Program-made: the position numbers and the translations under genes
Source of the DNA: Rhizaria sp. SCN 62-66
Lineage: Eukaryota
Reading direction: 5' to 3'
DNA length: 51,661 bases
Assembly (NCBI GenBank): GCA_001724265.1
Contig: MEDY01000206.1
Location: forward strand, 1-51,661
In this document: piece after piece, positions 1 through 51,661 of the stretch
How positions within the stretch are numbered: position 1 is the stretch's first letter
Layout: every line of letters starts with the position of its first letter
Notes under the pieces: model-generated
What the model was told of the DNA's origin: nothing
The model's database searches: none
The model's input: the letters and a program-made list of their open reading frames with translations, nothing else

Positions 1-528
1 GGGAAATAGCATGGTCGACTCTTGTGCAGTGTTGCGGAGAAACCGAAGTACGTAAGGCTTTAGCGTCTCTGCCACTTCATCAGCTGTAACTTCTGGAGTA
101 CATTTAAACGTCACTTCAGGCGTCTTTATACTTCCTAACCCTGGGGACGAGACATACCGCCCACGACTGTTGCTGAGTATTGAGGAAATGCAGTGCGCGA
201 TTCGGCCGTTCGGGACGACCTTAGCCAAAGGGTACACATCATACGACTTAGTGCTGTCCCAGCTGAATAGCACCGCTTCAAATAGCTCACGCCTCGCACT
301 GACACCGAGGGCTTCAAGGATCTCTGCGATTACAGGCTGGCAAGCTGCACGCTCAGCCGCAGTTTTGCGCTTCAACAACTCCGCAAACACTTTAAGGACC
401 ATCGGCGAGGTTAGACGGTATTCCCGCCGCGACCAGACTGCCTCGACCGCGGAATTTTTAGAGCTGATCGAGCAAAACGTGACAAGGCGGTTTGTGTCCA
501 AATGGATAGGTGCGCCATTGACAGTCAT
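1..528. repeat. Left arm of window-bounding inverted repeat (partner 51137-51661)
   Basis: 1-99 is the exact reverse complement of 51563-51661 (first mismatch at 100 vs 51562). Gapped similarity continues to the ATGACTGTCAA at 528 / 51137. Confidence 0.97.
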
Positions 529-546
529 TTGTGTGGTCGGATCGTT
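1..546 (-). CDS. 5'-truncated Crinkler/RHS-type effector paralogue, runs off the left end
   Basis: Stop-free minus-strand frame NDPTTQMTVNGAPIHLDTNRLVTFCSISS...RRELFEAVLFSW...QESTMLFP, collinear with the C-terminal part of the 48914+ gene. Preceded by a TTACAG acceptor and a possible 30-nt exon at 654-625. Absent from the ORF track because it has no stop in the window. Confidence 0.75.
134..181. repeat. 48-nt segment identical in direct orientation to 51488-51535 (micro-inversion inside the inverted repeat)
   Basis: CCTAACCCTGGGGACGAGACATACCGCCCACGACTGTTGCTGAGTATT occurs on the + strand at both ends although its flanks are reverse complements. ATACT (128-132) and AGTAT (176-180) bound the core. 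Confidence 0.97.
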
Positions 547-711
547 CTGTAATACAACAGAAAGATCGATTATTATTAATAGTTGTGCAGTTGCAATGTA
601 GGCTGATATCACTGTGTTACTTACATTTGCCGGCAATGTCAATGGAAGCCTCACCTGCGACAGTTATAAGGATCAACGAAACAAATGTTAGAGCTTGATG
701 ATCACGAGTTC

Positions 712-4676: not shown

Positions 4677-5999
4677 TCAGCCGCGGCTGTTGTTGTTGCC
4701 GTCGTTGTTCCCGTCCTCGCCGGTGTACCCTGGCGCGACGCCCCAGTAGACGGCCGGCTTGGACTCAGTCTGCACAAACCGCGCGCGCGCGATGTCCTCC
4801 GAGTCGCGCGCCTTGGCCATCGTGGCGTCGCCCTCGGCCCGCGCGCGCGCCTGCGCGGCCGCCAGCTCGACCTCGCGCTCGGCGCGCTCGGCGGAGAACT
4901 TGCCCGTCACGATGATGCGCTTGGCCGCGGGCGCGCCCTCAGTGGCCATCTTCATCTGCAGCTGCGCCTTGATGCCCTGCACCTTATCTCCCGCCAGCGC
5001 CTGCTCCAGGTCGCTCACCGGCGCGAACCGCACCGCCAGCGGCGCACGCTGCTGCTGCCCAGCCACCGCGCCCGCTGTTGCGGCGAGAGGGGGGAAATGG
5101 ACGCCGTGGAGGCCGAGCAGCGCAGTCTCGGCCTCGGGGACCGTGGCGAAGTGCGCCAGCGCGAAGATCTGCAGCGGGTGGTGGTACTCGCGGTACAGGC
5201 GCCCAAAGCCGCGCAGCAGGCGCGAGAGCGCGTCGCGGTCGTACGGCTTGACCAGGTTGTCGATGCGGATCACCACAGAGGGGAAGCGCAGGTCCGCCGC
5301 GGGGTGCGCGCTCGCAGACTCATGAGTAGACTCACTGGACTCCACAGTAGTATGCTCCTCCATGGCCTCCGCGTCTGCGCCCTGGTCCTCAGCCTGCGCC
5401 TGCGCCTGCGCCTGCTCCTGCGCGGCGCTCTCAGCGGGAGCGGCAGGGGCGGCAGCAGAAGCGGCGGGGGCGGCGGCGGGGAGCTGGACGTCAGCGTTGT
5501 TCTTAGCGTTGTTGTTGATGTTGATGATAGGGGAGTCAGCGGGCTTGGACTTCTTGGGCGTGGGCTCAATGGCAGCCTCCGTCTCAGCAACGGCAGGGGC
5601 CGCGGCAGGCGCCTCAACAACAGGGGCAGCAACAGGGGCAGCAACAGGGGCAGCGACAGGCTCGGCCTCAGCAGCAGCAGTTGCAGGTGCAGTCTCAGCC
5701 TTGACAGGCGCAGTCTCAGCCTTGGCAGGCGCAGTCTCAGCCTTCGAATCGGTCGCAACGGGGGCAGACTCGGTCTTGACAGCCACGGTGGCATCCTCAT
5801 CAGCAGCAGTGGCAGCGGCCTCCTCAGCGGCAGCAGGAGCGGCCTCAGCAGCAGCGTCAGCGTTCGCGTCGGTGCCATTGGCGGCGTCGTGCTCCTCGAG
5901 ACGGGCGATGAGCTCGGCCTTCTTGCCTGCAGTGGGCAGGTCGCGCTTCTTGAGCTCGGCTTGCAGCGCCTTGACAGTCAAAGATTCCCAGTTGGACAT
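4677..5999 (-). CDS. Acinus-like protein (SAP + RRM-like + RSB-like motif)
   Basis: N-terminal SAP (LTVKALQAELKKRDLPTAGKKAELIARL), RRM-like region (VIRIDNLV...ALAHFATVPEAETALLGLHGVHFP) and C-terminal FVQTESKPAVYW resembling the Acinus RSB motif (F-x-x-T-x-x-x-P-x-[IV]-Y-W). ATG at 5999, TGA stop. Confidence 0.75.
   Translation of the reverse strand: MSNWESLTVKALQAELKKRDLPTAGKKAELIARLEEHDAANGTDANADAAAEAAPAAAEEAAATAADEDATVAVKTESAPVATDSKAETAPAKAETAPVKAETAPATAAAEAEPVAAPVAAPVAAPVVEAPAAAPAVAETEAAIEPTPKKSKPADSPIININNNAKNNADVQLPAAAPAASAAAPAAPAESAAQEQAQAQAQAEDQGADAEAMEEHTTVESSESTHESASAHPAADLRFPSVVIRIDNLVKPYDRDALSRLLRGFGRLYREYHHPLQIFALAHFATVPEAETALLGLHGVHFPPLAATAGAVAGQQQRAPLAVRFAPVSDLEQALAGDKVQGIKAQLQMKMATEGAPAAKRIIVTGKFSAERAEREVELAAAQARARAEGDATMAKARDSEDIARARFVQTESKPAVYWGVAPGYTGEDGNNDGNNNSRG
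5689..5744. repeat. 21-bp coding tandem repeat (KAETAPx)
   Basis: GCAGTCTCAGCCTT-based unit at 5689, 5710 and 5731. Confidence 0.9.
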
Positions 6000-6478
6000 C
6001 TCTCTGTGCTCTCTAGCGTGAACAAGTTGAGTGGGATAAACAGGCGGGAGTGAGGCGACCGGGGTGCAGAAAATGGTGATAGACAAGCAATAAAGACTCC
6101 ACACAGGATTTAATTTTCAAACGATATATTTAAGTATGCATTATTTTCATTTACACCAGTATATTTTGAAAATAGCGACATGTTTATCGACTATTCTATC
6201 CGCAAGTTAGACCCAACCGTTGGCCACCACAATCCAGGACAGCCAATCTCACCACAGAACAGCTCTTGTAAGCTTGCTCTTGCGACAGTGCAGTGTAACA
6301 GAGAAATAACAACGCAAAACTTGACGTGCAGGTATATTTAAACAATTTCTGTATTCTATATATCTCACGCACTGGATTGAGCGCGTTTAAGCTTCTATAT
6401 AACCGTAGTAGTGTAGCTCGACGCATGCTGGGAGTGTGAGGCTGCGACAGCTCGTTGCCGCCGCCGCTCTCACTGCAA

Positions 6479-29348: not shown

Positions 29349-32300
29349 ATGGCGTCATTTTCTCCCAGCGGCGGCCAGGAACACCGCATCCTGTCCCTGC
29401 TGCCTCTCCTGGTCGACTCAATCCTTCCTGCTGCCAACAACACCAGCAGCAATATGGCGGCTCTGGTCGACGCCAAGCGCGCCTCGCTGGCGTCCTTCCT
29501 GCAGCGCCTATGCTCTTCGCGCCTCAGTCCCGACCCGCTCGCGCTTGCGCCCTTCACCCTCTCCGCGCGCGCCGCCACCGTCGCTGCCGCCGCCGCCACT
29601 GCAGCCTCCGCGTCTCATACTGCCTTCGGGTCTGGCTCAGCGTCCGGCGCGGCGGTGGCGGCGCGTGCCCGCGCCGAGCAGGCCGTGACCGCGTTCCTGT
29701 CGCCGCACGCACCTGCCGCGCGTCTATTACGTCAGCGCGAGAGCGTGCTGTATCTCCTGCTCTCGCTGGCGCAGTCTATCGGCAACGGAGTCAACACAAG
29801 CGCGCCTGCTCTGAGCTCGAGTGTGTCCGCTAACAATGCTTACGCTGCGAGTGCGAGCCGCTTTGACGCCGGGATGGGGCTCCAGACCTCCGGCCTCAGC
29901 GCCCCCTACAACAACGCCGGACAGCAGCAGCAGCAGCTCTCTGGCCCTGCGCGGGCTCCGTGCCACGGTGTGAACCCCGCGATGAGCGGCCACAGTGCCT
30001 CCAGCAGTGCGACAAGCAGCGCCAGCGCCAGCGGCGGATTCAGGCTGGCGACTGCGCCCGCCCCGCAGTATCAGCCGAACGCGCTGCCTTCGTTTACCCT
30101 CTACAACAACAACGGCAGCGTCAGCAGCAGCAGCAGCAGCGCCAGTGCCAGCGCCAGCAACGCGGCCGCTAAGATCAACCTATCGCCCGATTTGCCCGAG
30201 TCTGTGCTGCTGCACGACCTTTTTTCGGTCCTGCAGGGCCTCCCGGGTCGCTACATCCACGCCGACGCCGCCCCCGCCTCCGCCTCTTCACAGCCGCAGT
30301 CGCTGACTAGCAGTGCGAACGCTGGCGGCAGCGTGACCGCGGGCGGCTGGGCCGTGGCGGCCTCGGCGGGGGCGACGCTGGCGCAGCGGCTGCTGATCCG
30401 CCGGCTGGGTGCGTTGGGGTCACTCTACGCACGCGTCGACGCCGTCGCTAAGGGGACGCTTACATCGCAGGCGCAGAGCCCCTTACACGCGAGCGCCAGC
30501 GCGAGCGCCAGTGCCGGCAGCAGCGGGGGGCTGATCCGGCAGGCGTACTGCGAGGCCCTTACAGCGGAGCTCGACGCCTACTTACACGCGCTCATGTCGC
30601 TCCAAACCCAGCTCCCTCCGCTCCCTGACTCCACAAACAGCAACAGCAACAACAACAACAGCAACAACAGCGTCGCGAGCTCGCAGTCGCAGCTGACGCT
30701 GCGGCGCGTGTGGGCGTGGGCGCAAGAACCCCTTGCGCGGCTGCGCGCGCTGGCCGCGCTCTGCGACAGCGTCGGCGGCGCCACGGGTGGCGCGCTGCTC
30801 ACGGTCCTCCACGCGCTCTGCGGCGACGACTCGAGTGCGGGCACCAACGCCGGTAGCAGCAGCGGCAGCGGCTCGGCCAGCTCCATCTATAATCACTCCG
30901 CGGATGACGCATCTTATAGTAACAACGGCGGCTTCGGCTATGGGTTCGGTGTGCCGTGCGCGAGCGCGGGCGGCGCGGCGGGCGCGGCGGGCTGCGACGC
31001 CGAGATGCGCGTGTGCGCGGGCCGCGTCCTAACAGCCGCTGCGCGCCCGCTGCTGGCGATGGCGCAACACTGGCTCGCCACGGGCGCGCTCGCCGATCCC
31101 TTCGACGAGTTCTTCATCGTCAACACCAACCATGGCAACAACAGCAACAGTGCTACGAGCGCGAGCGCGACTGGCACTGGTTCTGCGAGCTCCAGCTCGA
31201 GCTCGAGCTCCAGTGCGAGCGCGCTGTGGCATCAGCGGTACTGCCTGCTGCCGGCGCGCGTGCCCAGCTTCGTGCCCTGGCCGCTCGCGCAGACGATACT
31301 GCTGGCCGGCAAGAGCGTGCTTTTTATCCGAGAGGCCTGCGCGCAGCCCGGCTTCGCGCTCACTTGCCGCCTCTCCCACTCCGACGCCGTTGCTGCGGCA
31401 GTCGCGGCGGCGGACGCGGCGGCGGACGCGGCCGACGCGGCGCTTACGCGCGGCGCAGTCTCAGTGGGCTCCGACTGCGGCTACGGCTTCGGCGGCAACA
31501 GTAGCAACAGCTTGAGTGCTGTGGATGCCTTCAGACCGAGCAACGTCAACGGTGCCGGCCAAGGCGACGACTACAACGGTATCCTCGCTGCAGCCGGGTT
31601 TTCTCTCTCCAACATCTCTGCGCACAGTAATAGTAGCGCCAACGCGCTCGCTTACAGTAGCTCCAGTAGCAACAGCAACAGCAGCAGCAGCAGTAGTTTG
31701 GAGGCCGTCGCGGTGCGCGCCGCCGCGGCCGCGTCCGCGCACCTGATGTACCTGCTGGACACACGCTTCGCGCTGCGGCGGCACTTCGCGGCGCTGCACG
31801 ACTTCGTGCTGCTGGGCAGCGGCGAGTTTGCGCGCGCGCTGCTGGCCGCTGCGGCGCCTGAGCTGGGCCGCCACGCAGTCACGGTCGCGCCTCACCACAT
31901 GCAGGCCGTGGTCGACGCGGCTATGGCGCGCCTCACCTCCGCGCCCGCGCCCGGTAAGAGCTCTGCGATCGCTGTGAGCACTGCCGGCGCCGGCGTGAGT
32001 GGGGGCATGAGTGCGGCGGAGCAGGAGGCCGAGGTGCGGGGGCGCGTGCTGGGCCGCATGGTGCGCGGAGGTGATAACGATCGCGCGTGGGACGTGTTCA
32101 CGCTCGATTACGCGCTCGGCGACTCGCCGCTTGCCGCTGTGGTCGACGCCGCGGCGCGCGCGCGCTACATGCGCGTGTTTCGGCTGCTCTGGAAGGTCAA
32201 GCGCGCGGAGGCGGAGCTGGCACAAGTTTGGGCGCTCCATTCGGGCGGCGTCAGCAAAGTCAGGTACGAGATACTCTTCACGCGTTGTGATTTTTCTTTT

Positions 32301-34296
32301 ATTACTTGCTATTTCAATATTTTAACTCATTTTCTAACTATTTAAATTTGTCTTATTCTATCATATAAATTATTTCACGTCATTTTCCTTTGCTTTGTTT
32401 TGTTTTAACTCCGTTAGGATGATGCGCGACCGCGCGACGTCGGCGCTGGTGCAGCGGTGCGCGATTCTGCGTCACGAGCTGGCGCACTTCACCACGGCTA
32501 TCTCTTCATATCTCTCTTTCGAGGTACTCGACGCCGCAGGCGAGCGCTGGCGCGATGCGCTGGCCGCGGGGGGCGTGCAGTCGCTCGACAGGTGCGTCCT
32601 TTACAGTCTCACAGGCTCATAAAAATATTAATCCATGGAGTGATCATTTTCATAGTCTCACACAGTCTACTGAGCTTGTGTTTATTGAGTTATCAAGCTA
32701 TGTTCTCCTCGCTATATGACATTTTCACACTTAAATCACACTTACTCACCAACTATTTCGTCTCTACACATTATTTCTTGTTTTCCCTCCAGTCTGATCG
32801 GCGCTCACGGCCGGTACCTCCACACCCTGGTCTCGGCCGCGCTGCTCGAGGGCCCCGGCGCGAGCGCCGTGCTGGCATACCTGAACCGCCTACTGGACAT
32901 CGGCGTGCAGTACCGCTACCTGCAGGACCGCGCGTATGACGTCATTCTGCAGGAGGCCGCGCGGCGCGAGGAGCGCGACTATGCTATCTTCCTCCTTTCC
33001 GACCCCGCCGCGCTCGCGCTCAACGGCAACGGCAGCGCCGCGAGTGCCAACTCGCACAGCGCCAAGCGCGGCGCCGCTGCGGGGGCGGCGTCCGCCGTGT
33101 CGCTGCTGCCGGTGGCGGCGGCGACGGCGTTCCGCTCGCGCATGCGCGTGGCCGTGACGCGCCACCGCGAGCACCTCCGCCAACAACAGCAACAGCAACA
33201 AGACGCAGCCGCCGGGGCAGGTGCGACGTCACCTTCTGTCGCTGCCGCTGCGGCCGCGGCTGCGCCCGCACCGGCCCAGTCCGCGCTGGCGCGTCGGTAT
33301 CTGCGCCTGGACTCGGCCGAGCGCGCCGCGCGGGCGGCCTATCTGGAGCGGCTGGCTGTCATCACCAAGCAGGTCGTCACCGTACGTTAAGGTTAAGAGA
33401 ACAAGCATTTGGCGACGCTATCACGTGTTATGAGATTAAATTGGCATATTTTAACGATGTAATGAGTTCCAATTTCTTTTATATTTTTCCGGATATTCAT
33501 TCACATCACATCTATCTGACAATATTCCCTTTTTCCTCCGACATTTGGTATCGCTTTTCAGGTCCAGCACGCGCACGAGCGCATGTTGGCGGGCTTCATC
33601 GCCGCCCTCGAGTCCCACAAAGCCCAGGTCCTCGCTCTCGAGCGCTCCTCATCTTCCTCCTCCTCCGTTTTGCCCGCCTCCGCCGGCGCCCCCGCGGCCG
33701 CAAGCAGCGCGACCGCCGGCGGCGCCGCTGCGGGAGCGTCGGTGAGCGCGCTCGTGACTGCCCGCCTGGCCTCCCTCTCGGCCTCCGCCGCCCCCGCCTC
33801 GACGGCCGCGACGGGCTCGGGCGTGCCGCTCGCGCTCGCGCTCGCGGCGCGCGCGTCGCTGTCGGTGGCGCGCGCGCGGCCCGAGGGCGTGACCGAGGCC
33901 GACGCGGGCGCGCTCGCCGCCGCCGAGGCCGCAGTGGCCGGCGCCGACGTCGAGGCCGTCTATCGCGGCTACCGCAGCGCGCGCGCGGGCGGCCGCAACG
34001 CCATCGCGCGCTGCGCCGCGCTGGCGCGGGACGCAGCCATGCACCGCGGCGGCGCGGCCGCAGCCGTCGCGGCGGCGGTGGCGGGCATCAACGGCGGCGA
34101 CAGCGCTGGCGGCATCGGCAGCATCGGCGGCGACAGCGGGGCTGCTGCGGCGGCCGCGGCAGCGGTCAGCAACGCGACGTTCCTGACCGTTAAGGTCGAC
34201 TTTAACGAGTATTACGCGGGCAGCGGCCGGCTGGGCGCGGGGCAACGCGCGAGCGCGGCTGCTGCTGCCGCCGCTGCTGCGGCCGCGAACGAGTGA
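29349..34296 (+). CDS. TUBGCP3: Gamma-tubulin complex component 3 (GCP3/Spc98), ~1470 aa
   Basis: GRIP1/GRIP2 motifs LTLRRVWAW..EPL, GGALL, DPFDEFFI, LWHQRY.L, ILLAGKSV.FIREAC, FVLLGSGEF, WDVFTLDY, YMRVFRLLWKVKRAE, YLSFEVL. Exons 29349-32263, 32418-32591, 32793-33381, 33562-34296. TGA stop. Confidence 0.88.
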
Positions 34297-35043: not shown

Positions 35044-38000
35044 ATGAGCAGCACAGCGTTGCCGGCGCCCCCCGTGCCGTCGCGACCGCGCTCCCACTCC
35101 CCCGCTCCCAACCGCGGCGGCGGAGCAGGCGGCAACTCAACCAACGTGAGCGCTGGCGCTGCAGCGCCCGCCGGCAGCCCGCCCGCTGTCCCCACGCGCC
35201 ACCACAGCAGCAGCATCAGTGACGCATCCCCTCCCGACGCAGCGGCCCGCGCCGCTCATGGTGACGGCCACACCGCTCTCGGGGGCCACACCAAGACTGC
35301 TTCTGCCGCCGATGATGGTGACCACGAGACTCTGGAGGGCTGGCGTGCCCGCGCCCTCGCCGCCGAGTCTCAGCTTGCACTCCTCCGCGCCACCGTCGCA
35401 GCCAACATCCACACTGGCGCTGGCGCTGGCGCTGGCGCTGGCGCAGCTGCGTTATCGCAATCTCGCCTCAGCCCCTCCGGCTCCCGCGGCGGCGGCGCCT
35501 CGTCCGCGCCGCCCCCACCCGTGCTGCCGGATCCGGCGCAGATGTGGCTGTCGGACGACACGCCGTTCTACCGGTCCGCGCTCTCTACGCAGGCGGACCG
35601 CGCGTCGCTGCTGCCCGCGCGCCTCAAGACCGTGTCGGCGACCACGGCCGCGCTCGCCAAGGGGCTTGAGGCCGCCGCCAAGGGCTACCGCGCCGCGGCC
35701 GCCGCGCTGCAGGCCGACCCGCCCGCTGCGGCCGCCGCGCATGGCTCGCACGGCAACGGCGGCAACGGCAATGCGGCGGGCGCGAGCAGTGTCGGCGCGG
35801 ACGGCGGCGGGACCGGCGGCGCCGCGGGCGCGGGCGCGGGCGCGAACGTCCTGGGCGCCAACGGCGAGGCGCTGAGCGAGTGGGACCTGCTGGACGCCCC
35901 CGCACACCTGCCCTGTCCCTCGGCCGCCTCCGCCGCCGTCTCGGTTCTCTCAGGCAACGGCAGCTCGAGCTCAGGCGCTGGTTCTAGCGCTGCGTCGCCC
36001 GCCGCGTCTGCGGCCGCCGCTGCGGCGACGGTGCCCGCGCGCGCGGCCCCCGTGGCGCGCGCGCTGGCGGCGCTGCTGCGGCAGCTGGCCGAGTTCTCCG
36101 ACCAGCTTGCGCTCTCGCTGGCCGTGCTGCGCGTCGACGCCGACGCCTCGCGCACGGCGGCCGCGCGCGCGCTTAAGGCGGCGGGCCACCAGTACGACGT
36201 CGCGCTCGCCGCGTACGAGGCCGTCGTCGACAAGCGCCTCAGCAAGAAGCCGCTCTCGGCCGCCGCGGCCAGCGCGGGTGCGGCGGCGACCGCCGCGGCC
36301 GCTGCGGCGGCGACGGCGGCGACCGCCGCGGCCGCGGGGACGACCGCAGGCGCTACGGCCGCGGCCACGGCGGCTGCGGCGGCCGCTGCGGCGGCGAACC
36401 AGGCGGCTGCCGCGGCGTACGCCGCGGTGCCTGCACTCAGCAGCAGCGGCAGCGGCAACTCCGCGTCAACAGCGGCCTCTGCGGCGGCGGCGGCGGCGGC
36501 CCACACGGGCGACTTCACCGGCTTCGGCAGCGGCGGCGTCGTCAAGGTCGCGCCTTCCTCGCTGGTTACCACGCCCTCGAACGCCGGCGCCGGCAGCGCC
36601 AACGGCTCTAGCGCAGGCTCGAGCGGCGCAAGCACTGCGTCGGACGCGGCGGCGGCTGCGGCAGCCACGGGCACTCCCAGCTCGAGCGCCAGCGCCCCTG
36701 CCACCACCAGCAGCGCGAGCGCGAGCGCGAGTACTCCCGCTGCTGCTGCGGCTGCTACAGCTGCTGCTGCCCTTAGCTCGGCGCCGCTGCCGCCTGCCGC
36801 GGCCGCCGCCGTGTCCTCTGCTGCCGCGACCGCAGCGGCCGATGCCGTCGCGCTCGCGGCCGCGACCGACGCCCGGCGCGCGTTCGAGTCCGCGCGCGTG
36901 GCGTATGTCTCGGCGCTCAACGCCGTGCGCGGGCCACAGCGCACGGCGGCGGCGGAGCTGCTCGTGGGCGCCACGCGTGCGCTGCGGGCGTTCCTCGACC
37001 AGAGCGCGGCCGCCGCGGCAGAGGCGGCAGACGGTGCCGTGCGCGCCGCCGCCGAGGAGCTGGCGCCCGCCAAGGCGGGGTATGTAAGGGTCGATGGGTA
37101 CTTAGACGTCGTTAAGGGGGAGCTCGAGCGCAGGCTTACCGTCGTCCCTTCTAACAACAGCAACAACAGCAGCGCTAGCGCGAGTGTCGCGAACTCTAGT
37201 AGCAGTGCAAAGAGTTTGAGCGCGAGCAACTTCAGCGTCTGCGTCAACCTCGGCGAAGTGCAATCAGGCAGCGCGTCTAACACAAGCAATGGCGCGAGCA
37301 CGAACAGTGCCAGTGCTGCTGCTTCTGCCGCGTGCAACAGCGTCAATCCTACTGTGGGTACCGACATTCTCGACATCTCACTGGAGCCAATTTTTTCGGA
37401 ACTGCGTGCCTACGTGTTCCCGCCTGTGCAGCCGCCTCTGGCGACGCCGCTCGCCAGCACCACCACCATTGCTGAGAAAAACGCGAGCAGGAGCGGCGCT
37501 AGCAAGGACGAGACCGAAGCCAAGGCGCCGGGCGATAGCAAGAGCTCCGACACCATCACTGGTGCCGCGACTGCGTCCGCGCCTGCGGCCGCTGCTGCTG
37601 CGGTGCGCCACTGGCCGCAGCCGGGCTGCCGCGCCTTCGGGCCCACGCCGCCCTGCTCGGCCTACTACGGCGCCGGCAGCGCCAGCGCTGCCAACGCCAC
37701 CGCGAGCAGCGCGCAGCAGTCGGACCCGGCCTCGGCTGTTACCACTCACGTCGACACCAGCGCCAGCATGGGCGCGACCGCGGCAGCCCCGGTGATCTTT
37801 AAGCAGGGCTGGTTGCGCAAGCAGGCGAGCAATTTCACGCGCGAGTGGCAGCGCCGCTACTTTGTCCTCACCAAGGGCCAGCTCGTCTACTTCAAGGAGA
37901 ACTCCTATGCTACGCCGCCCACCGTTGTCTCCAGCAATATCGGCGGCAACAGTAACAGCGCGGCGGCTGCGGCTGCTGCGGCTGCTGCCGCGGCCGCGGC

Positions 38001-39924
38001 CGCTGCCGTTGCCGACGGCGTGTCGCTCGGCGGTCTCAGTCCCAGCACCGCCGTCAGCTCGACATACAACAGCAGCACCAACTCGAGCACGAGCGCCGCG
38101 AGCGCCGTCAGCGCCGTGAGCGCCGCGAGCGTCAGCACCGCGAGCGCGAGCGCCGGCGCCGCCGACCCCGGCGCTAGTGTTGCTGGCGCCGCGAGCAGCA
38201 GCGGCGGCGACGCGCTGACCCCCGCGCTGCTGCAGCTGCAGCCGCACTTGGTGGTGGATGTGCTGCTCTGCACGGTCCGCATCCCGCCTAGCAGCAGCAA
38301 CGCGGGCGCGCTCACCAATGCCAGCATCGCGGACTCGGGCACCGCCGGCGCGGGCGCCAACGCCGCTGCCGGCAACAGCAGCTCGGGCGTGGCCGCGGCG
38401 GGCTCCGGCGCGAGTAGCGCCGGCAGCAGCGCGAACAAGGAGCTAGAGTTCCTCTTCGAAGTGGTGTCGCCGCAGAAGCGCTGCTTCCTGCTGCAGGCGA
38501 GCTCTGAGGCTGAGCGCCAGGCGTGGGTGACGGCGATCCAACAGTGCATCGAGCACGCGCTCGCGTCGGGGACCGCCAAGCGCGCCCCGTCGGTCAATGC
38601 CAGCGGTGCGGGCCCCGCGGGCGGCGCGGACAGCAGTGCGGGCGACGCGGGCAGCAACAGCGACGACTCCGCGGGCCCGACCGCGGGGAACAGAGGGCTG
38701 ACGCTGTTCGCCAGCAACAGCGTCGTCGCGACCAACGCGAGCACTCTCCCAACCAGCAGCATGAGCGCTGCGTCAAGCGGAGACTCAGCTCCTGCTGGTG
38801 GCGGTCGCCGTGCGAGTGCAGCAGTTTCGTCGACGCCGGCCGCCACGAGCGCAAACACAGCCAACACCCCGGCGACAACTGCGGCAACCACAGCTTCAGA
38901 CGCAGATTCGTTGGTCGTTGTGCTGCCTCCCGGCGTTGACCCTAGCGCTAACTCCAGTGCCAGTGTCAGTGCAGGCGCAGCTGCCAGCGCCAGCGCCAAC
39001 ACAGCCGCCGCCGCCGCTGCCGCCGCGGCCACTGCCGCTGCCGCGGCCGCTGCCGCGGTGCCTGCGAGCCAGCGCAAGTTGCTGCCGGCGACGTCGCTGA
39101 TGCCACTGATCACGGCGGCGAATCCGTTCTGTGTGGACTGCGGCGCTTCCGCCCCCGACTGGGCTTGCATCAACACGGGCACGCTCATCTGCATCCAGTG
39201 CTCCGGCGTGCACCGCTCGCTGGGCGTGTCGGTGTCTAAGGTGCGATCGCTGCTGCTCGATGTGTGGGACGCAGAGCTATGCGACCTCATGCTCGCCATT
39301 GGCAACACGGCCTTTAACGCGCTGTACGAGGCCGCCGTGCCATCGTTCCTGTCCAAGCCCACGGCGCAGGCGTCGCACGACGAGCGCGACGAGTACATCA
39401 CGATGAAGTATTTGCGCCGCGCCTTCGTCAGCAAGGCCGTGCTCGTGTCGATGGCCATGCCGCCTCGCAGGCTGCAGCGCGCCGTGCTCGCTGCCGCCGC
39501 GCGCGGACAGCTCATGACGCTGCTGCAGCTCGTCGCCGTCGGCGCCGCGCCCGCGGCCGGCGGCAAGGTCCCGCTCGTCGTGCTCAAGAAGTGGCTCGGC
39601 GACGCCGAGTGCGCCGACGTCGACGACTTCCTCGGCCTTCCCGAGTCGGACTCAGATATGAGTAGCGTCAACGCGAGCGCCACTGGCGACGCCGCTGCTC
39701 CTGGCGCTGGCGCTGGCGTGGGCGCTGTGGAGGACGAGTCTGAGTGGTTTGTGACGACGCCGCTACACCTGGCGGCGTGGGTGCGCGGCGACCCGCACTG
39801 CATCGAGTACTTGCTGCAGAACGGCGCGCGCACCAGCGAGAAGGATGGCGAGGGTGCCACCGCGCTCGAGAGGGCCAAGCAGTCAGGCTTTGCGCGCGCC
39901 GTCGAGAGGCTCAGGAGGCGGTAA
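35044..39924 (+). CDS. ACAP/centaurin-beta-type Arf GAP (BAR-PH-ArfGAP-ankyrin)
   Basis: BAR start DDTPFYR, split PH domain (KQGWLRKQASNFTREWQRRYFVL...FEVVSPQKRCFLLQASSEAERQAWVTAIQ), ArfGAP zinc finger (CVDC...LICIQCSGVHRSLGVSVSKVRSL), ankyrin repeats (TPLHLAA). Intronless, TAA stop. Confidence 0.93.
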   Translation: MSSTALPAPPVPSRPRSHSPAPNRGGGAGGNSTNVSAGAAAPAGSPPAVPTRHHSSSISDASPPDAAARAAHGDGHTALGGHTKTASAADDGDHETLEGWRARALAAESQLALLRATVAANIHTGAGAGAGAGAAALSQSRLSPSGSRGGGASSAPPPPVLPDPAQMWLSDDTPFYRSALSTQADRASLLPARLKTVSATTAALAKGLEAAAKGYRAAAAALQADPPAAAAAHGSHGNGGNGNAAGASSVGADGGGTGGAAGAGAGANVLGANGEALSEWDLLDAPAHLPCPSAASAAVSVLSGNGSSSSGAGSSAASPAASAAAAAATVPARAAPVARALAALLRQLAEFSDQLALSLAVLRVDADASRTAAARALKAAGHQYDVALAAYEAVVDKRLSKKPLSAAAASAGAAATAAAAAAATAATAAAAGTTAGATAAATAAAAAAAAANQAAAAAYAAVPALSSSGSGNSASTAASAAAAAAAHTGDFTGFGSGGVVKVAPSSLVTTPSNAGAGSANGSSAGSSGASTASDAAAAAAATGTPSSSASAPATTSSASASASTPAAAAAATAAAALSSAPLPPAAAAAVSSAAATAAADAVALAAATDARRAFESARVAYVSALNAVRGPQRTAAAELLVGATRALRAFLDQSAAAAAEAADGAVRAAAEELAPAKAGYVRVDGYLDVVKGELERRLTVVPSNNSNNSSASASVANSSSSAKSLSASNFSVCVNLGEVQSGSASNTSNGASTNSASAAASAACNSVNPTVGTDILDISLEPIFSELRAYVFPPVQPPLATPLASTTTIAEKNASRSGASKDETEAKAPGDSKSSDTITGAATASAPAAAAAAVRHWPQPGCRAFGPTPPCSAYYGAGSASAANATASSAQQSDPASAVTTHVDTSASMGATAAAPVIFKQGWLRKQASNFTREWQRRYFVLTKGQLVYFKENSYATPPTVVSSNIGGNSNSAAAAAAAAAAAAAAAAVADGVSLGGLSPSTAVSSTYNSSTNSSTSAASAVSAVSAASVSTASASAGAADPGASVAGAASSSGGDALTPALLQLQPHLVVDVLLCTVRIPPSSSNAGALTNASIADSGTAGAGANAAAGNSSSGVAAAGSGASSAGSSANKELEFLFEVVSPQKRCFLLQASSEAERQAWVTAIQQCIEHALASGTAKRAPSVNASGAGPAGGADSSAGDAGSNSDDSAGPTAGNRGLTLFASNSVVATNASTLPTSSMSAASSGDSAPAGGGRRASAAVSSTPAATSANTANTPATTAATTASDADSLVVVLPPGVDPSANSSASVSAGAAASASANTAAAAAAAAATAAAAAAAAVPASQRKLLPATSLMPLITAANPFCVDCGASAPDWACINTGTLICIQCSGVHRSLGVSVSKVRSLLLDVWDAELCDLMLAIGNTAFNALYEAAVPSFLSKPTAQASHDERDEYITMKYLRRAFVSKAVLVSMAMPPRRLQRAVLAAAARGQLMTLLQLVAVGAAPAAGGKVPLVVLKKWLGDAECADVDDFLGLPESDSDMSSVNASATGDAAAPGAGAGVGAVEDESEWFVTTPLHLAAWVRGDPHCIEYLLQNGARTSEKDGEGATALERAKQSGFARAVERLRRR

Positions 39925-40401: not shown

Positions 40402-41740
40402 TCACGGGCGCTCCCAGCTTGCAATGCCGCCCTCGACGAGCGTGAAGAGCGGGTGCAGATCGGGCAGCAGCAGACGGCGCGGCCGCATTGTCTGCTCGCC
40501 ACCTGCAGCAGCAGCCGCCGCCGCCGCCGCTGCGGCCGCCGCCGCCGCCGCCGCAGCAGCAGCAGTTGCCTTTGCGTTTTTCGCCTTGGCTTTGGTGGCG
40601 CCAGTGCCTGGGTTGGCTGCCGCGTCGGCCTGCGCCTCAACCGCGGCGGCCGCGGCCTCGGCCCGAGCGACAACGACGTTCATCGCGGCAGTAACTGCGG
40701 CCGCGGTCTTGGCCTCGGCCTCGGCCCGGAGGACAGCGGCGCTCTGCTGCTGCTGGCGCTTCGAGCCAGCCTTAGAGCCGGCCTTAGTACCAGCGCCAGT
40801 GTCAGCGTTGTCGTCAGTGGAGGCGTTTGTGTACACGCTGACGTCGGTGGTCGTCGCCGGAGTGACCACAAGCGCCGCGTTGGTGTTCAAAACCGCCAGG
40901 TCGCGGATGGCCAGCTTGCGCATCAGGTGTCCCCACTCGTACTCGACCTGGCCCCTGCTCACGGTCATTTGGCCCACGGTCACCGCGTCGCCCACAGACA
41001 GGCTGCCGTCGCTCACGGTCACTTCGCCGCCGCTGCGCGCGGGCTGCTCGCGGTCATGCTGCTGCTGCTGCGGCGGCTGCGGTTGCCGCCGCCACAGCAT
41101 CCTCTTCCCGCGGAAGTCAGCCTCGACCTCATCAGAGTATGAGCCAGTGTCGAGCGAGGCCGCGGCGCGATCGGCCGCCTGTTCCAGCGTGCTCGTGACG
41201 GCGTCAGCCTCAGAGCCAGCAGCAGTGGCGGCGCTACTCGCAGTTGCTGCAGTTGCGGGGTCGGCGTCGGCTGCGGCGACGGTGACGGGGAGGATGCGGG
41301 TGATGTCGAAATTGTAGCCGCGACTGGAAGTGAAAAGCAGGGATTTAGCATGCAAGAGAGAAGCGAAGTGAGTAATTTCCAAGTATAGTGATCGCTAAAG
41401 AACACAAACAGTAATTTCGGACGATACATATGACGGATATAAATAATATTAATATGAATCGAGTCCCAGCATGCGCAACACATCCGCGGCGAGCCATTCG
41501 TGTCGTATGTGAAATGCGGATGTTTCTGCCGTACCGTGCGGCCTCTTGGTGGATAACGTGGAGGTAGGCTGTCATGGCAGCCGTGGGGTTGGCGTGCGCG
41601 CGAAAACGGTCGAGCTGGGGGTGGCGTGTGTAGCCGCGCGTGAGGCCGTGGAGGACCTTCTGGGCGAGCAGCGACTCACGCCACAACGCGACCAACCCAC
41701 GCGTGTCGAGGTAGCGAGGGTGCAGAGACCATAGCCGCAT
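40402..41740 (-). CDS. Pyrimidine-dimer DNA glycosylase / T4 endonuclease V-family protein, prokaryote type (~375 aa)
   Basis: MRLWSLHPRYLDTRGLVALWRESLLAQKVL..GYTRHPQLDRF, RGYNFD, VSRGQVEYEWGHLMRKL, HPLFTLVEGGIASWER. Exons 41740-41535 and 41323-40402 with a phase-2 GTACGG...CAG intron. TGA stop. Confidence 0.9.
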
Positions 41741-42415
41741 AAGACTTTGAACAAGAAACATATTCCGAATTGAACTATATAGTGAGATAAAACCATGAAC
41801 ATTGCTTAGGATAAGAGCTTAGATAGTGGCAAGCCGTTGGTGGCTACGGTTAAGGACTTGCATCTTAGCCCTAATATTGCAGCCAACAAGCACAAGATTT
41901 AACAAAAATAAAGTAGTCATATCATAATTCATGGTTCCAACCGATCTGACGTTAAAACCCACATAGATACTGAAGAGTGATGGGGTTTCTGAGCAGCTTC
42001 TCGGGCATTCGGCCCTTCGTTTTCACTGCCTGTTCTACGGGTTCGTTATGCCGTCCAGGTCATAGATGAGAGAACATAAATGAGGATACAATAATAATCC
42101 GTTACAAAAGCAGTATTTTTAGGAAAGCTATAGTATTATTACGAACAATGCACTGAGAGCAGCGAGTGACAAGTTGAGGATCCCGAAGCTTCATCAACGG
42201 GTGGAACACCGTCAATAAAAAGGGACTAAAAGGATTACTTTCGAGAGAAGCACCGGCAGGCTTGACTGATGAGAGACCGAGTGCGAGGGCATTTTGACGG
42301 TCTCATGCGCGATACAGACTGCATACAATAGTTGTGAAGACATTTCCCGATATAGCCATTGCCATACTAACTTTGTATTTTTTATTTCATTCCTGTTTTG
42401 TTGCGAATAGCGGAT

Positions 42416-48913: not shown

Positions 48914-51661
48914 ATGAACCACACCGACAAGGTTCGACGGACTTTGTTAGCCAAGAACACAGATTCAGCGCCCCAAACAGATGTTGACTTGAAGATGTCA
49001 CTCAAAAATGACTTTAGAAACGGTGCTGACGCAAGTAAGAACGTGCATATCGATCCGCCGGTATCATCTGGTGTCGCTATGAACCTTTCGCGACTCAGTG
49101 AGGTGTCACTTCCGAACTCGCTGGGCAACCCCAATCAACACGTTGAGGCAGCTCGAGATGGCTTGCAAATCCTCTACCTCCACGATGACGAAGCCGAGGA
49201 CGGCGCCCCCTCGAGCCAGCAGCCACCGAATACCTTCGTCTCAGCTGCTGTCACAAAGGCATTCGGCACGAAGGTGCCCGCTCGCGAAAATCGCACTGCC
49301 TATCCGGTTGGGCAGGCGACAGTCACGTCCACGCGAAGCAAGGCCATCGAACCCAGAGCAACGCAGCGACGTACTGGAAACACGCGCCTCCAGGATACCG
49401 CCGCTGCCGCTGCTGCCACGGATAAGCGCGGCCACCCGCGCCAGAACACGGATGCTCCTGTTTTGACGCGTGCTACCGCAAGTCCAGCGTGTGCAAGCAT
49501 CGTTGCAGCGAACCCTACCACAGCTTTGAAAGCCACCGTAGCCCTGCCGGAGCCTGACAGTGTCAACGTTCACGCTGCAAAGTGCATGGTGCAAAACTAC
49601 GAAGCCAAAGTCTCAGCTTTAGTGGCCGCACAACAGCTGTTGCGCCCCATCCGTTCGTCTGATAAGGCTGAGCTTGATGTGGCGCGGTCTGAGCTCGACA
49701 TGGTTCGTGCCGAGCTTAAAGCTGTCGTAGCAACAGAACGTCTGTCGAAGCTGAGGGAAGCGGTGGCGAATGGAGCTGCTGACCTTGAGTCGCAGCTGGC
49801 GACCGCAATTACAGCTGAGCAAGAGGCGGTTGGTTTGGTGACGCTTGCTGAACTTAAGCTTGATATCGCTCAGGCTAAGCTTAATGTGGAAAATGCGACG
49901 TCGGAGCATGGCAAGAATGCCGCGCTTTTACTCGAAACAGAGGCGGTTCTACGCGACCTTCATTGGGCGCGCATAAAGGTTCCTGCTTCCGACATGAACC
50001 AGCGGAATATGATTGACGCTGAGGTTGATCAGAAGGATAAAACTCTTCAGTTCATTCAGCCTATGCTCGATGCTTCTCAAGCTAGGCTTAACACTGCTCA
50101 GACAGCACTCAGTGATGTAAAGGCGAGGCTTGAGAATGCGGAGAGGAAGCTCATTGCTGATAGGGCTCCTGGTCATAAGTCTTTGAACATGTTTCTGGGT
50201 CAGCAAGCGAAGTTGTGGGAGTATCTCAAGCGCAACAATGAGCTCGTCGTGACGACTGAAGCGGCGCACGTTGTGACGGCCACGGCGCCTTCAAACACGC
50301 GCTGGTTTTTTACTGGTAAGGGTTCGGAATGGAAAACCCTTGTTATCCGCAAGCTGTACCTCCCTCTATACGATGACATCATGGCCAAGTTCAAGGACAA
50401 TAGGAACCGCGCGGTTGGGACGGTGAGGAATGGCTATGCGATGGTCCTGATTGGGGCTGCTGGCATTGGGAAGTCTCTGTCGCTCAACCACCTGGTGTTA
50501 CTCGCTGCGAAAGAAAAGGAGGTCACCGTGGTCTGCCACTGGGGTGGTCAGGAGGAAGCTCTCGTGCTGTTGCACGATGGTAGTGCTAGAGTTGTTTCGG
50601 TGAAGTCGGACATATTCGAATCATATCTCTACGATGTTAACACACTCTATCTCTACGACCCCGATGAGGGCCCCACCCAGACCTCGGCTTTTCGCACTGA
50701 GCGCCATTCGTTTCATGTTGTGGCGGCGAGCCCGAATCCGAAGAACTATGCTGCGCCTTTTCAGAACAATAAGAATGAATCTTGTGGGTTTTACTACATT
50801 GATATGTGGAGTGAAGAGGAGATTCAGGAGGCCCTGCCAATCATGCTTCGTGACGCTGGTTGCGAGCCTAAAGACTGCTACATGCAAGATGAGCATGAGA
50901 CCTTCGCTGATGCAGTCACTGAGTACTATTCGAAGGCAAATGGCACCGTGCGGGCACTGATGTGGAAGTTACAGAGTAACAACCCACGTTCACTCATGGC
51001 CACTCGAGTTGGGTTTGAATATTACTTTGACGCCGAGCTTTTTGTGGACAAGTTTTCTAACATGACGGCGGAACTATTTCAGACGGTGAAAGATTTGGTC
51101 CGCATGCGCGGTGCTGACAGAGATTCGTACCTGACCATGACTGTCAAAGGCAAAATTATCCATTTTGACACAAACCGCCTTGTCACGTTTTGCTCGATCA
51201 GCTCTACAAAATCCGCGACCGAGGCAGTCTGGTCGCAGCCGAAATATCGCCTGACCTCGCCGATGGTCATTGAGGTGTTTGCGGAGATGTTGCAGCGCAA
51301 AACTGCGGCTGAACGTTTAGCTTGCCAGCCTGTAATAGAAGCGATCCTTGCAACCCTCGGTGGTGGTGCCAGGGGTGAGCTATTCGAAGCGATGCTATTC
51401 AGCTGGACCAAGAAAGAGTCGTATGATGTGTACCCTTTGGTTCTGGCCTAGAACTGCCGCACCGCGTACTGCATTTCCTCCACACTACCTAACCCTGGGG
51501 ACGAGACATACCGCCCACGACTGTTGCTGAGTATTAAGAAGCCTAAAGTGACGTTTAAATGCACTCCAGAAGTTACAGCTGATGAAGTGGCAGAGACGCT
51601 AAAGCCTTACGTACTTCGGTTTCTCCGCAACACTGCACAAGAGTCGACCATGCTATTTCCC
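48914..51661 (+). CDS. Crinkler/RHS-type effector: coiled coil + P-loop NTPase, in-frame TAG at 51449-51451, frame open to window end
   Basis: Family-typical motif series LVIRKLY, VLIGAAGIGKS (Walker A), LYLYD, VVAASP, YIDMWSEEEI, NGTVR, GELFE. After the TAG, 70 sense codons run to the end (NCRTAYCISS...STMLFP). Intronless and less GC-rich than neighbours. Start codon uncertain. Confidence 0.8.
51137..51661. repeat. Right arm of window-bounding inverted repeat (partner 1-528)
   Basis: Reverse complement of the left arm with one 3-nt indel, scattered substitutions and the internal micro-inversion. The last 99 nt are identical. Confidence 0.97.

Follow-up and report, generated by a model that had tools for sequence, protein, structure and literature searches.

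A 43-nt segment between short inverted repeats is turned round in one of two paralogues of an orphan gene family on a eukaryotic contig

The contig and the gene copies at its ends

The window, by which the whole stretch of 51,661 nt analysed here is meant, is eukaryotic and carries long GC-rich open reading frames (ORFs), among them those for a gamma-tubulin complex component (29349-32345) and an ArfGAP-PH-ankyrin protein (35044-39924). An orphan gene family is represented at its two ends by one copy each, in inverted orientation. The first 99 nt (1-99, minus strand), which form the outer end of the left copy, are the exact reverse complement of 51563-51661 (99/99), so that the window is taken to be a whole contig stopping inside a two-copy repeat; Logan contigs extending 187-307 nt past position 1 fit such a stop. 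The unique segment enclosed by the inverted arms, which are identical further out (1-99 and 51563-51661), measures 51.4 kb. The contig sequence occurs in runs labelled bioreactor or wastewater metagenome, plus a fourth run, and its source appears to be an uncultured eukaryote of such samples.

Scanning of the 47 ORFs of the window (7 + 40) against Pfam gave matches to GCP, ArfGap/PH/Ank, SAP and Pyr_excise, and sub-threshold ones to nSTAND_NTPase5, Hydrolase_6 and TFIIA; no recombinase was found among these ORFs. The Pyr_excise match, a pyrimidine-dimer DNA glycosylase domain, lies at 41345-41761 (minus strand, E 1.4e-17), and the SAP-domain protein at 4677-6104 (minus strand, E 1.9e-13). ORFs of 1891, 2247 and 937 aa were without a Pfam match. 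Two ORFs, 29349-32345 and 32716-33390, share the gamma-tubulin complex component, the end of the GCP C-terminal domain falling in the second; an intron or a break in the frame may therefore lie at about 32.3-32.7 kb.

The right copy is the full-length form of the orphan gene. Its 845-aa ORF (P0002; 48914-51451, plus strand) encodes a coiled coil, a P-loop NTPase with the Walker A motif GAAGIGKS, and a linker that ends at a TAG codon (51449-51451). Beyond this TAG the frame goes on in register, with the outer flank (51535-51661, plus strand) reading SIKKPKVTFKC...MLFP. For the NTPase only sub-threshold nSTAND/NACHT/AAA matches were obtained in Pfam (E 0.004 to 0.2), and a search of P0002 against PDB returned only a chance coiled-coil match (E 0.51). 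The C-terminal module, which had been called a presumed nuclease in the initial annotation, had no match in Pfam, Atlas or PDB sequences, and its AF2 model (pLDDT 39.7) was too poor for a fold search. Of the header-NTPase-nuclease modules of Crinkler/CR-RHS proteins, the Walker A motif and the sub-threshold NTPase matches are all that was recognised.

Homology of the left copy to the right one is confined to residues 742-842 of the latter and the sequence beyond them; no NTPase part was found upstream of the left copy or elsewhere in the window. The inner flank of the left copy (182-528, minus strand) corresponds to these residues, with homology starting at the ATG at 528-526, from which the frame stays open to the end of the window. 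The outer flank adjoining the segment described below (100-127, minus strand) encodes ...KTPEVTFKC... and carries 4 differences from the right copy. A polypyrimidine-plus-CAG motif was noticed 18 nt upstream of the ATG (about 546-565, minus strand). In three metagenome runs (X1, X2 and X3) a 60-nt contig equals 469-528 exactly and then diverges; it would represent a third context for the C-terminal module, belonging to another copy or another allele.

Relatives outside the window are few. Protein searches with the left-copy product (P0001) gave 2 hits among longer proteins, 2 among those near in length, 0 among shorter ones and 3 in the search of every protein. Besides the right copy, the relatives were only P0003 and P0005, encoded on the contigs L001 and L002, and a weak hit, a protein of 2847 aa, that leaves the segment of interest uncovered. 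Exact look-up of the left-copy product in 10 start/end variants found none in the collection, a result that is uninformative either way. L001 and L002 are two other metagenome contigs, identical over the aligned region, and are counted as a single outside lineage.

Over 434 codons dN/dS amounts to 0.77, it takes values of 0.96 to 1.19 in the inner region, and the orphan family appears to evolve almost neutrally, under weak or absent constraint. Two family members carry an in-frame TAG in the linker, at 51449-51451 in the right copy and at 1755-1757 in L001, where it is present in L002 as well; the two are 9 codons apart in the alignment, and conserved sequence in the same frame follows each. 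Their simplest reading would be decay, since dN/dS is close to 1. Use of TAG as a sense codon was considered and rejected because ORFs of 1626 to 2247 codons lack an in-frame TAG and another candidate ORF ends in TAG, which likewise favours decay. An intron at the right-copy TAG was also rejected: the sole surrounding GT..AG spans 24 nt and has no counterpart in L001.

The inverted segment and its arms

The window contains just two exact copies of a 48-nt string, 134-181 and 51488-51535, each on the plus strand, while matches of this type numbered 0 in shuffled sequence. The sequence around it is arranged as an inverted repeat, window 1-528 aligning with the reverse complement of 51661-51137 at 83.7% identity. 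The direct identity amid inverted flanks reported in the initial annotation was thereby reproduced, and so was its flipped core of about 43 nt bounded by a 5-bp inverted repeat in the left copy. The inverted unit is 133-175 (43 nt, minus strand), reading (L)SNSRGRYVSSPGLG, and its reverse complement agrees with the core of the right copy (51487-51529, plus strand), reading (L)PNPGDETYRPRLLL, at 42/43 positions, the lone difference being T133 against A51487. Compared without reverse-complementing, the two cores match at only 14/42. The 48-nt identity is composed of 42 core bases plus AGTATT, so the earlier description of a segment free of mismatches holds for the string and falls one base short for the core. 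Both translations proposed there are as given, and both orientations are open, with the reservation that the right-copy frame is closed by its TAG 12 codons before the segment.

In the left copy the arms ATACT (128-132) and AGTAT (176-180) form a perfect 5-nt inverted repeat that directly abuts the core. The corresponding arms of the right copy, ACACT (51482-51486) and AGTAT (51530-51534), pair at 4/5 positions, as do AAACT and AGTAT in L001; perfect arms are thus confined to the inverted copy. Upstream, the left copy reads AATACT, a hexamer reverse-complementary to the AGTATT that lies downstream in the ancestral arrangement, and the base next to the left-copy arms is unpaired (AATACT against AGTATA). 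By chance, a random 43-mer of the window is directly bordered by a perfect inverted repeat of 5 nt at only 117 of 51581 positions. The distance between the anchors TTTCCTC and AAGACG is 55 nt in 4/4 sequences, so that the length of the region is conserved.

Outside the core, the mismatches between left and right outer flanks fall at positions 100, 117, 122 and 127, the first 99 nt being free of differences. The inner flanks share 297 of 359 columns, among them an uninterrupted run of 40 identical nt and a stretch with 42 matches in 43 columns, and a near-perfect stretch of the size of the core is therefore not unique in this pair. The junction base 127 is A in the sense strand of the left copy and T in the others, and it appears to fit neither a 43-nt nor a 55-nt inversion.

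DNA folding of the segment with its arms predicted no stable hairpin and none better than shuffles, with energies of -2.5, -3.5 and -1.2 kcal/mol for the right copy, the left copy and L001 (z +0.96, +0.47 and +0.70, respectively). No target-site duplication was present at the segment, and the 48-mer had 0 matches in genome_contigs and 0 in viral_contigs. A small intron as explanation of the core was rejected, no GT..AG boundaries being found at it.

Orientation in the relatives and polarity of the inversion

Outside homologues had been proposed at the outset as a way to find the ancestral orientation, and they give that of the right copy. Across the core, L001 and L002 align collinearly with the right copy (35/42 nt), and their core translation, PSPEDKTYRPPLTL, is identical to PNPGDETYRPRLLL of the right copy at 9 of 14 residues. 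The 14 residues are accordingly ancestral and no insertion. The reverse complement of the left core matches L001 at 36/43 positions and keeps a T found in L001 where the right copy has A.

The relations among the copies change along the gene. Upstream of the core the three sequences are about equidistant, with 86/110 identities between right and left, 78/107 between right and L001, and 87/110 between left and L001. Over the arm and the following 33 nt, left and right share 34/38 positions against 32/38 between either copy and L001, and in the remaining 94 nt the figures are 94/94 and 81/94. Since left and right are the closest relatives for the core block and L001 is collinear with the right copy, the inversion is placed on the left branch. 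These comparisons indicate that the right copy has the ancestral arrangement and that the left copy carries the derived inversion, a polarity that depends on one outgroup and on the sister relation of left and right, because L001 and L002 represent one lineage.

The near identity of the core had been taken in the initial annotation as a sign of a recent or recurrent flip. Synonymous divergence (dS) of the left copy from the right one is 0.157 in the inner part and drops to 0.065 immediately outside the core, and the core and the sequence outward of it form a young, nearly identical block shared by both copies, from which 42/43 identity of the core is to be expected. The core has 1 difference in 43 positions against 9 in 62 in the two adjacent flanks (p = 0.045), and core identity is at most a weak sign of recent or recurrent flipping.

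Contigs from metagenome runs

Four metagenome runs (X1, X2, X3 and X10), from samples dated 2015 to 2025, were examined as Logan contigs assembled at k = 31. X1 equals X2 in all figures and shows no difference from the window; the two are probably one data set, maybe the source of the window itself, and they are therefore not counted as independent support. In the contigs of the four runs, which amount to three separate samples, the opposite orientation was listed on neither flank type. The sole strand-changing joint appeared where the right copy was aligned with the left (130 to 225), in one contig per run in all 4 runs; it is the inner flank/core junction of the right copy, and its sides measure 34, 34, 52 and 52 letters.

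The outer junction of the left copy is covered by a contig of X1/X2 (70-163, 0 differences). Its inner junction is covered by contigs 152-342 in X1/X2 and X3 and 152-488 in X10, each including 30 letters of the shared string, one below the 31-letter bridging rule, as is to be expected where k = 31 contigs meet a shared node. All 8 differences of the X10 contig lie at 349 or beyond. Contigs built at k = 31 cannot span a 48-nt string, so that the pairing of the flanks rests on the assembly of the window itself; as such contigs also drop rare variants, low-level flipping would be invisible in them.

In X3 and X10, positions 1-126 are covered only by a contig with three letters of the right copy, and the left outer junction occurs in no contig, while the depth at 121-200, summed over the listed pieces, is fully accounted for without one. 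Simplification of the assembly graph could account for this gap, as could conversion of the outer flank in that strain or a difference in structure. Contig depth at the shared 48-mer does not balance in any run and is unusable as copy number.

Both runs also hold a variant of the left copy at window 349-457, in which, among 8 differences, the letters at 378, 391 and 393 are those of the right copy. Such a pattern points to gene conversion in patches between the two inverted paralogues, or to a mosaic of strains.

Mechanism and alternative explanations

The arrangement is probably best explained by a single historical microinversion mediated by short inverted repeats, a mutational scar and not a switching device. 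The 43-nt segment of the left copy, which comprises the 3' module only, would have been turned round in place, once and in the past, the turned piece measuring up to 55 nt if the arms are included. The inversion would go back to a mistake of replication or repair at two short inverted repeats that pair imperfectly (AxACT ... AGTAT): the polymerase may have switched template, or a break within the segment may have been mended through microhomology. The perfect arms and the AATACT hexamer imply that the turned piece reached up to 55 nt or that the arms were homogenised in the same event, which may also have left the few extra substitutions at the junctions. The 14 linker residues would thereby have been replaced, with the downstream frame untouched since the length was conserved. 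That the frame stayed open is the usual outcome of such an inversion, at 62-76% of positions: an in-place inversion of 43 nt leaves it open at 515 of 830 positions in the right-copy ORF and, with six long ORFs pooled, at 6446 of 8434. Of the origins proposed earlier, a template switch at a short inverted repeat fits the locus, whereas its hairpin-driven form is unsupported, the folds being no better than shuffles. Short arms, a long spacer and the lack of a hairpin lead us to lean slightly toward the break-repair variant over a classical strand switch.

A related possibility is that one complex event was responsible, in which the inversion arose as a by-product of repair or gene conversion copying the outer block, made up of the core and all sequence 3' of it, between the inverted paralogues, through a template switch of the MMBIR/FoSTeS kind at the edge of the tract. 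It is allowed by the shift in relatedness of the copies, which occurs at or near the upstream breakpoint of the core and gives way outward to 42/43, 34/38 and 94/94, and the dS contrast between the inner part and the sequence just outside the core points the same way; the right-copy letters in X3 and X10 (3 of 8 differences) suggest patchy conversion between the copies. The boundary is, however, resolved only to about 20-30 nt, and the 33 nt adjoining the core hold 4 differences while the next 99 hold none, so that at least two tract ends would be needed. An inversion acting as a barrier to later conversion would look similar. Such a compound origin is considered rather unlikely. It is also conceivable that the flanks are paired otherwise than in the assembly, the 48-nt string being a direct repeat with copies 51.35 kb apart. 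The locus would then consist of two fold-back palindromes (outer-core-outer' and inner-core-inner') or of a 51.4-kb circle and a palindrome, with no inversion in place. Junctions of this sort would arise if short inverted repeats primed synthesis by folding back, the core forming the loop, and the k = 31 contigs are unable to pair flanks across 48 nt. Yet the right-hand path from inner flank through core to outer flank is collinear with L001 over the whole gene, which leaves the two left-type junctions to pair together, and the contig ends in 99 identical bases. A contig of 51573 nt in ENA with the same ORF also speaks against a different pairing, its length being 51661 minus 2 x 44; it would be the same path assembled with a word size of 55 instead of 99, both above 48. 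Altogether a different pairing of the flanks seems quite improbable.

The initial annotation had offered, as one of three readings, a shufflon-like swap of 14 residues between NTPase and presumed nuclease. A segment that still flips, by recurrent inverted-repeat inversion or through a dedicated invertase, would provide two alternative 14-residue linkers; the perfect left-copy arms, frames open both ways and 42/43 core identity are consistent with it, and recurrent spacer flips at perfect inverted repeats are described for yeast genes in the account of PMC8604942. Against such flipping, none of the 47 ORFs is a recombinase, arms of 5 nt are short of site-specific recombination sites (well over 5 bp), no hairpin is predicted, and one orientation per flank type is seen in the contigs of the four runs. 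Moreover, the inverted copy has no NTPase and the copy with the NTPase is stopped by its TAG before the segment; open frames are usual, and the identity is explained by the young outer block. Continued flipping of this kind is thus highly improbable. There is, in addition, a slight chance that the segment inverts at low frequency or that the locus has alternative structures built on the 48-nt direct copies. In that case the family would offer two versions of the linker between its modules, and the stop-free, stand-alone left copy, opening at its ATG, would be the expressed form. A further proposal of the initial annotation, that a tiny element, with 5-bp inverted repeats as its termini, had entered both copies at one site in opposite orientations, could account for ATACT/AGTAT and for the nearly identical cores. 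It fails because the relative of about 85% DNA identity has homologous sequence there; this sequence runs collinear with the right copy, has diverged to an ordinary degree (35/42) and conserves the translation, which makes the 14 residues ancestral. The 48-mer is also restricted to its two occurrences in the orphan gene within the window, with 0 in genome_contigs and viral_contigs, and target-site duplication is absent. Such an element has virtually no chance of being the explanation.

Relation to known inversions

The microinversion of the left copy belongs to a known class of mutation and is larger than the coding-sequence examples compared here. In the human-chimpanzee comparison of Potapova, Kondrashov and Mirkin (2022), 59 of 59 stringent cases were flanked by inverted repeats of 3-75 nt, and short imperfect arms were held to fit MMBIR break repair better than a strand switch (PMC8755829). 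The present inversion resembles these cases as they are set out in that report, being an in-place reverse complement with inverted repeats of few nt at the breakpoints and arms that may be imperfect; for their origin, a template switch was proposed, or the mending by MMBIR of a break within the segment (PMC8755829). The events described there measure 17-33 nt and are mostly non-coding, whereas here 43 nt (at most 55 with the arms) are turned round inside an ORF, and the inversion distinguishes two paralogues in one genome (PMC8755829).

Spacer inversion together with arm homogenisation was presented as the signature of template switching in coding DNA of Saccharomyces cerevisiae (Abraham and Hazkani-Covo 2021, PMC8604942). 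In the REG2 case, as it is described in that paper, the spacer was inverted, the arms were made perfect and neighbouring residues were replaced with the frame intact, as in the left copy. The dimensions differ: the yeast cases given there have arms of at least 9 bp, spacers of 2-5 bp and at most 5 residues replaced, against arms of 5 nt, a spacer of 43 nt and 14 residues here (PMC8604942). Within the general model of short template-switch mutations of Loytynoja and Goldman (2017, PMC5453318), a local inverted copy shows as a cluster of differences, and the left and right cores, at 14/42 as aligned, resemble such a cluster.

The likeness to shufflons extends to a coding-region segment that is open in both orientations. 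Shufflons of bacteria and plasmids need a recombinase gene, specific sites of more than 5 bp and mixed orientations at one locus. At the present locus neither a recombinase nor long sites nor, among the contigs of the four runs, mixed orientations were seen, and the host is a eukaryote. The family offers no sign of a switch, and the shufflon-like reading is unsupported; a microinversion of this type says nothing about a programmed system.

The weight of the finding is limited; it adds a clear case, with its polarity assigned, of a microinversion that is flanked by inverted repeats and lies within an open reading frame. Its spacer (43 nt) and the number of residues replaced (14) exceed those of the yeast cases compared (2-5 bp, at most 5 residues), and the spacer exceeds the human-chimpanzee ones (17-33 nt), as far as these are set out in the two reports. 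A single event can rewrite a linker without closing the frame, which is the expected outcome in GC-rich genes. For alignment-based work the case is a caution, in that a core matching at 14/42 mimics a burst of substitutions.

Sequence upstream of the left copy

Genes for tRNA-Asp(GTC) and tRNA-Glu(CTC) lie on the minus strand in the region upstream of the left copy (588-790, 1554-1626 and 2281-2353). A tRNA-Asp-like fragment was recognised at 722-787, consisting of 39 nt at 95% and 24 nt at 83%. The stretch that contains it, 588-787, is matched at about 85-90% by outside contigs of 1.5-15.7 kb, and it may be a tRNA-derived dispersed repeat located just upstream of the left copy.
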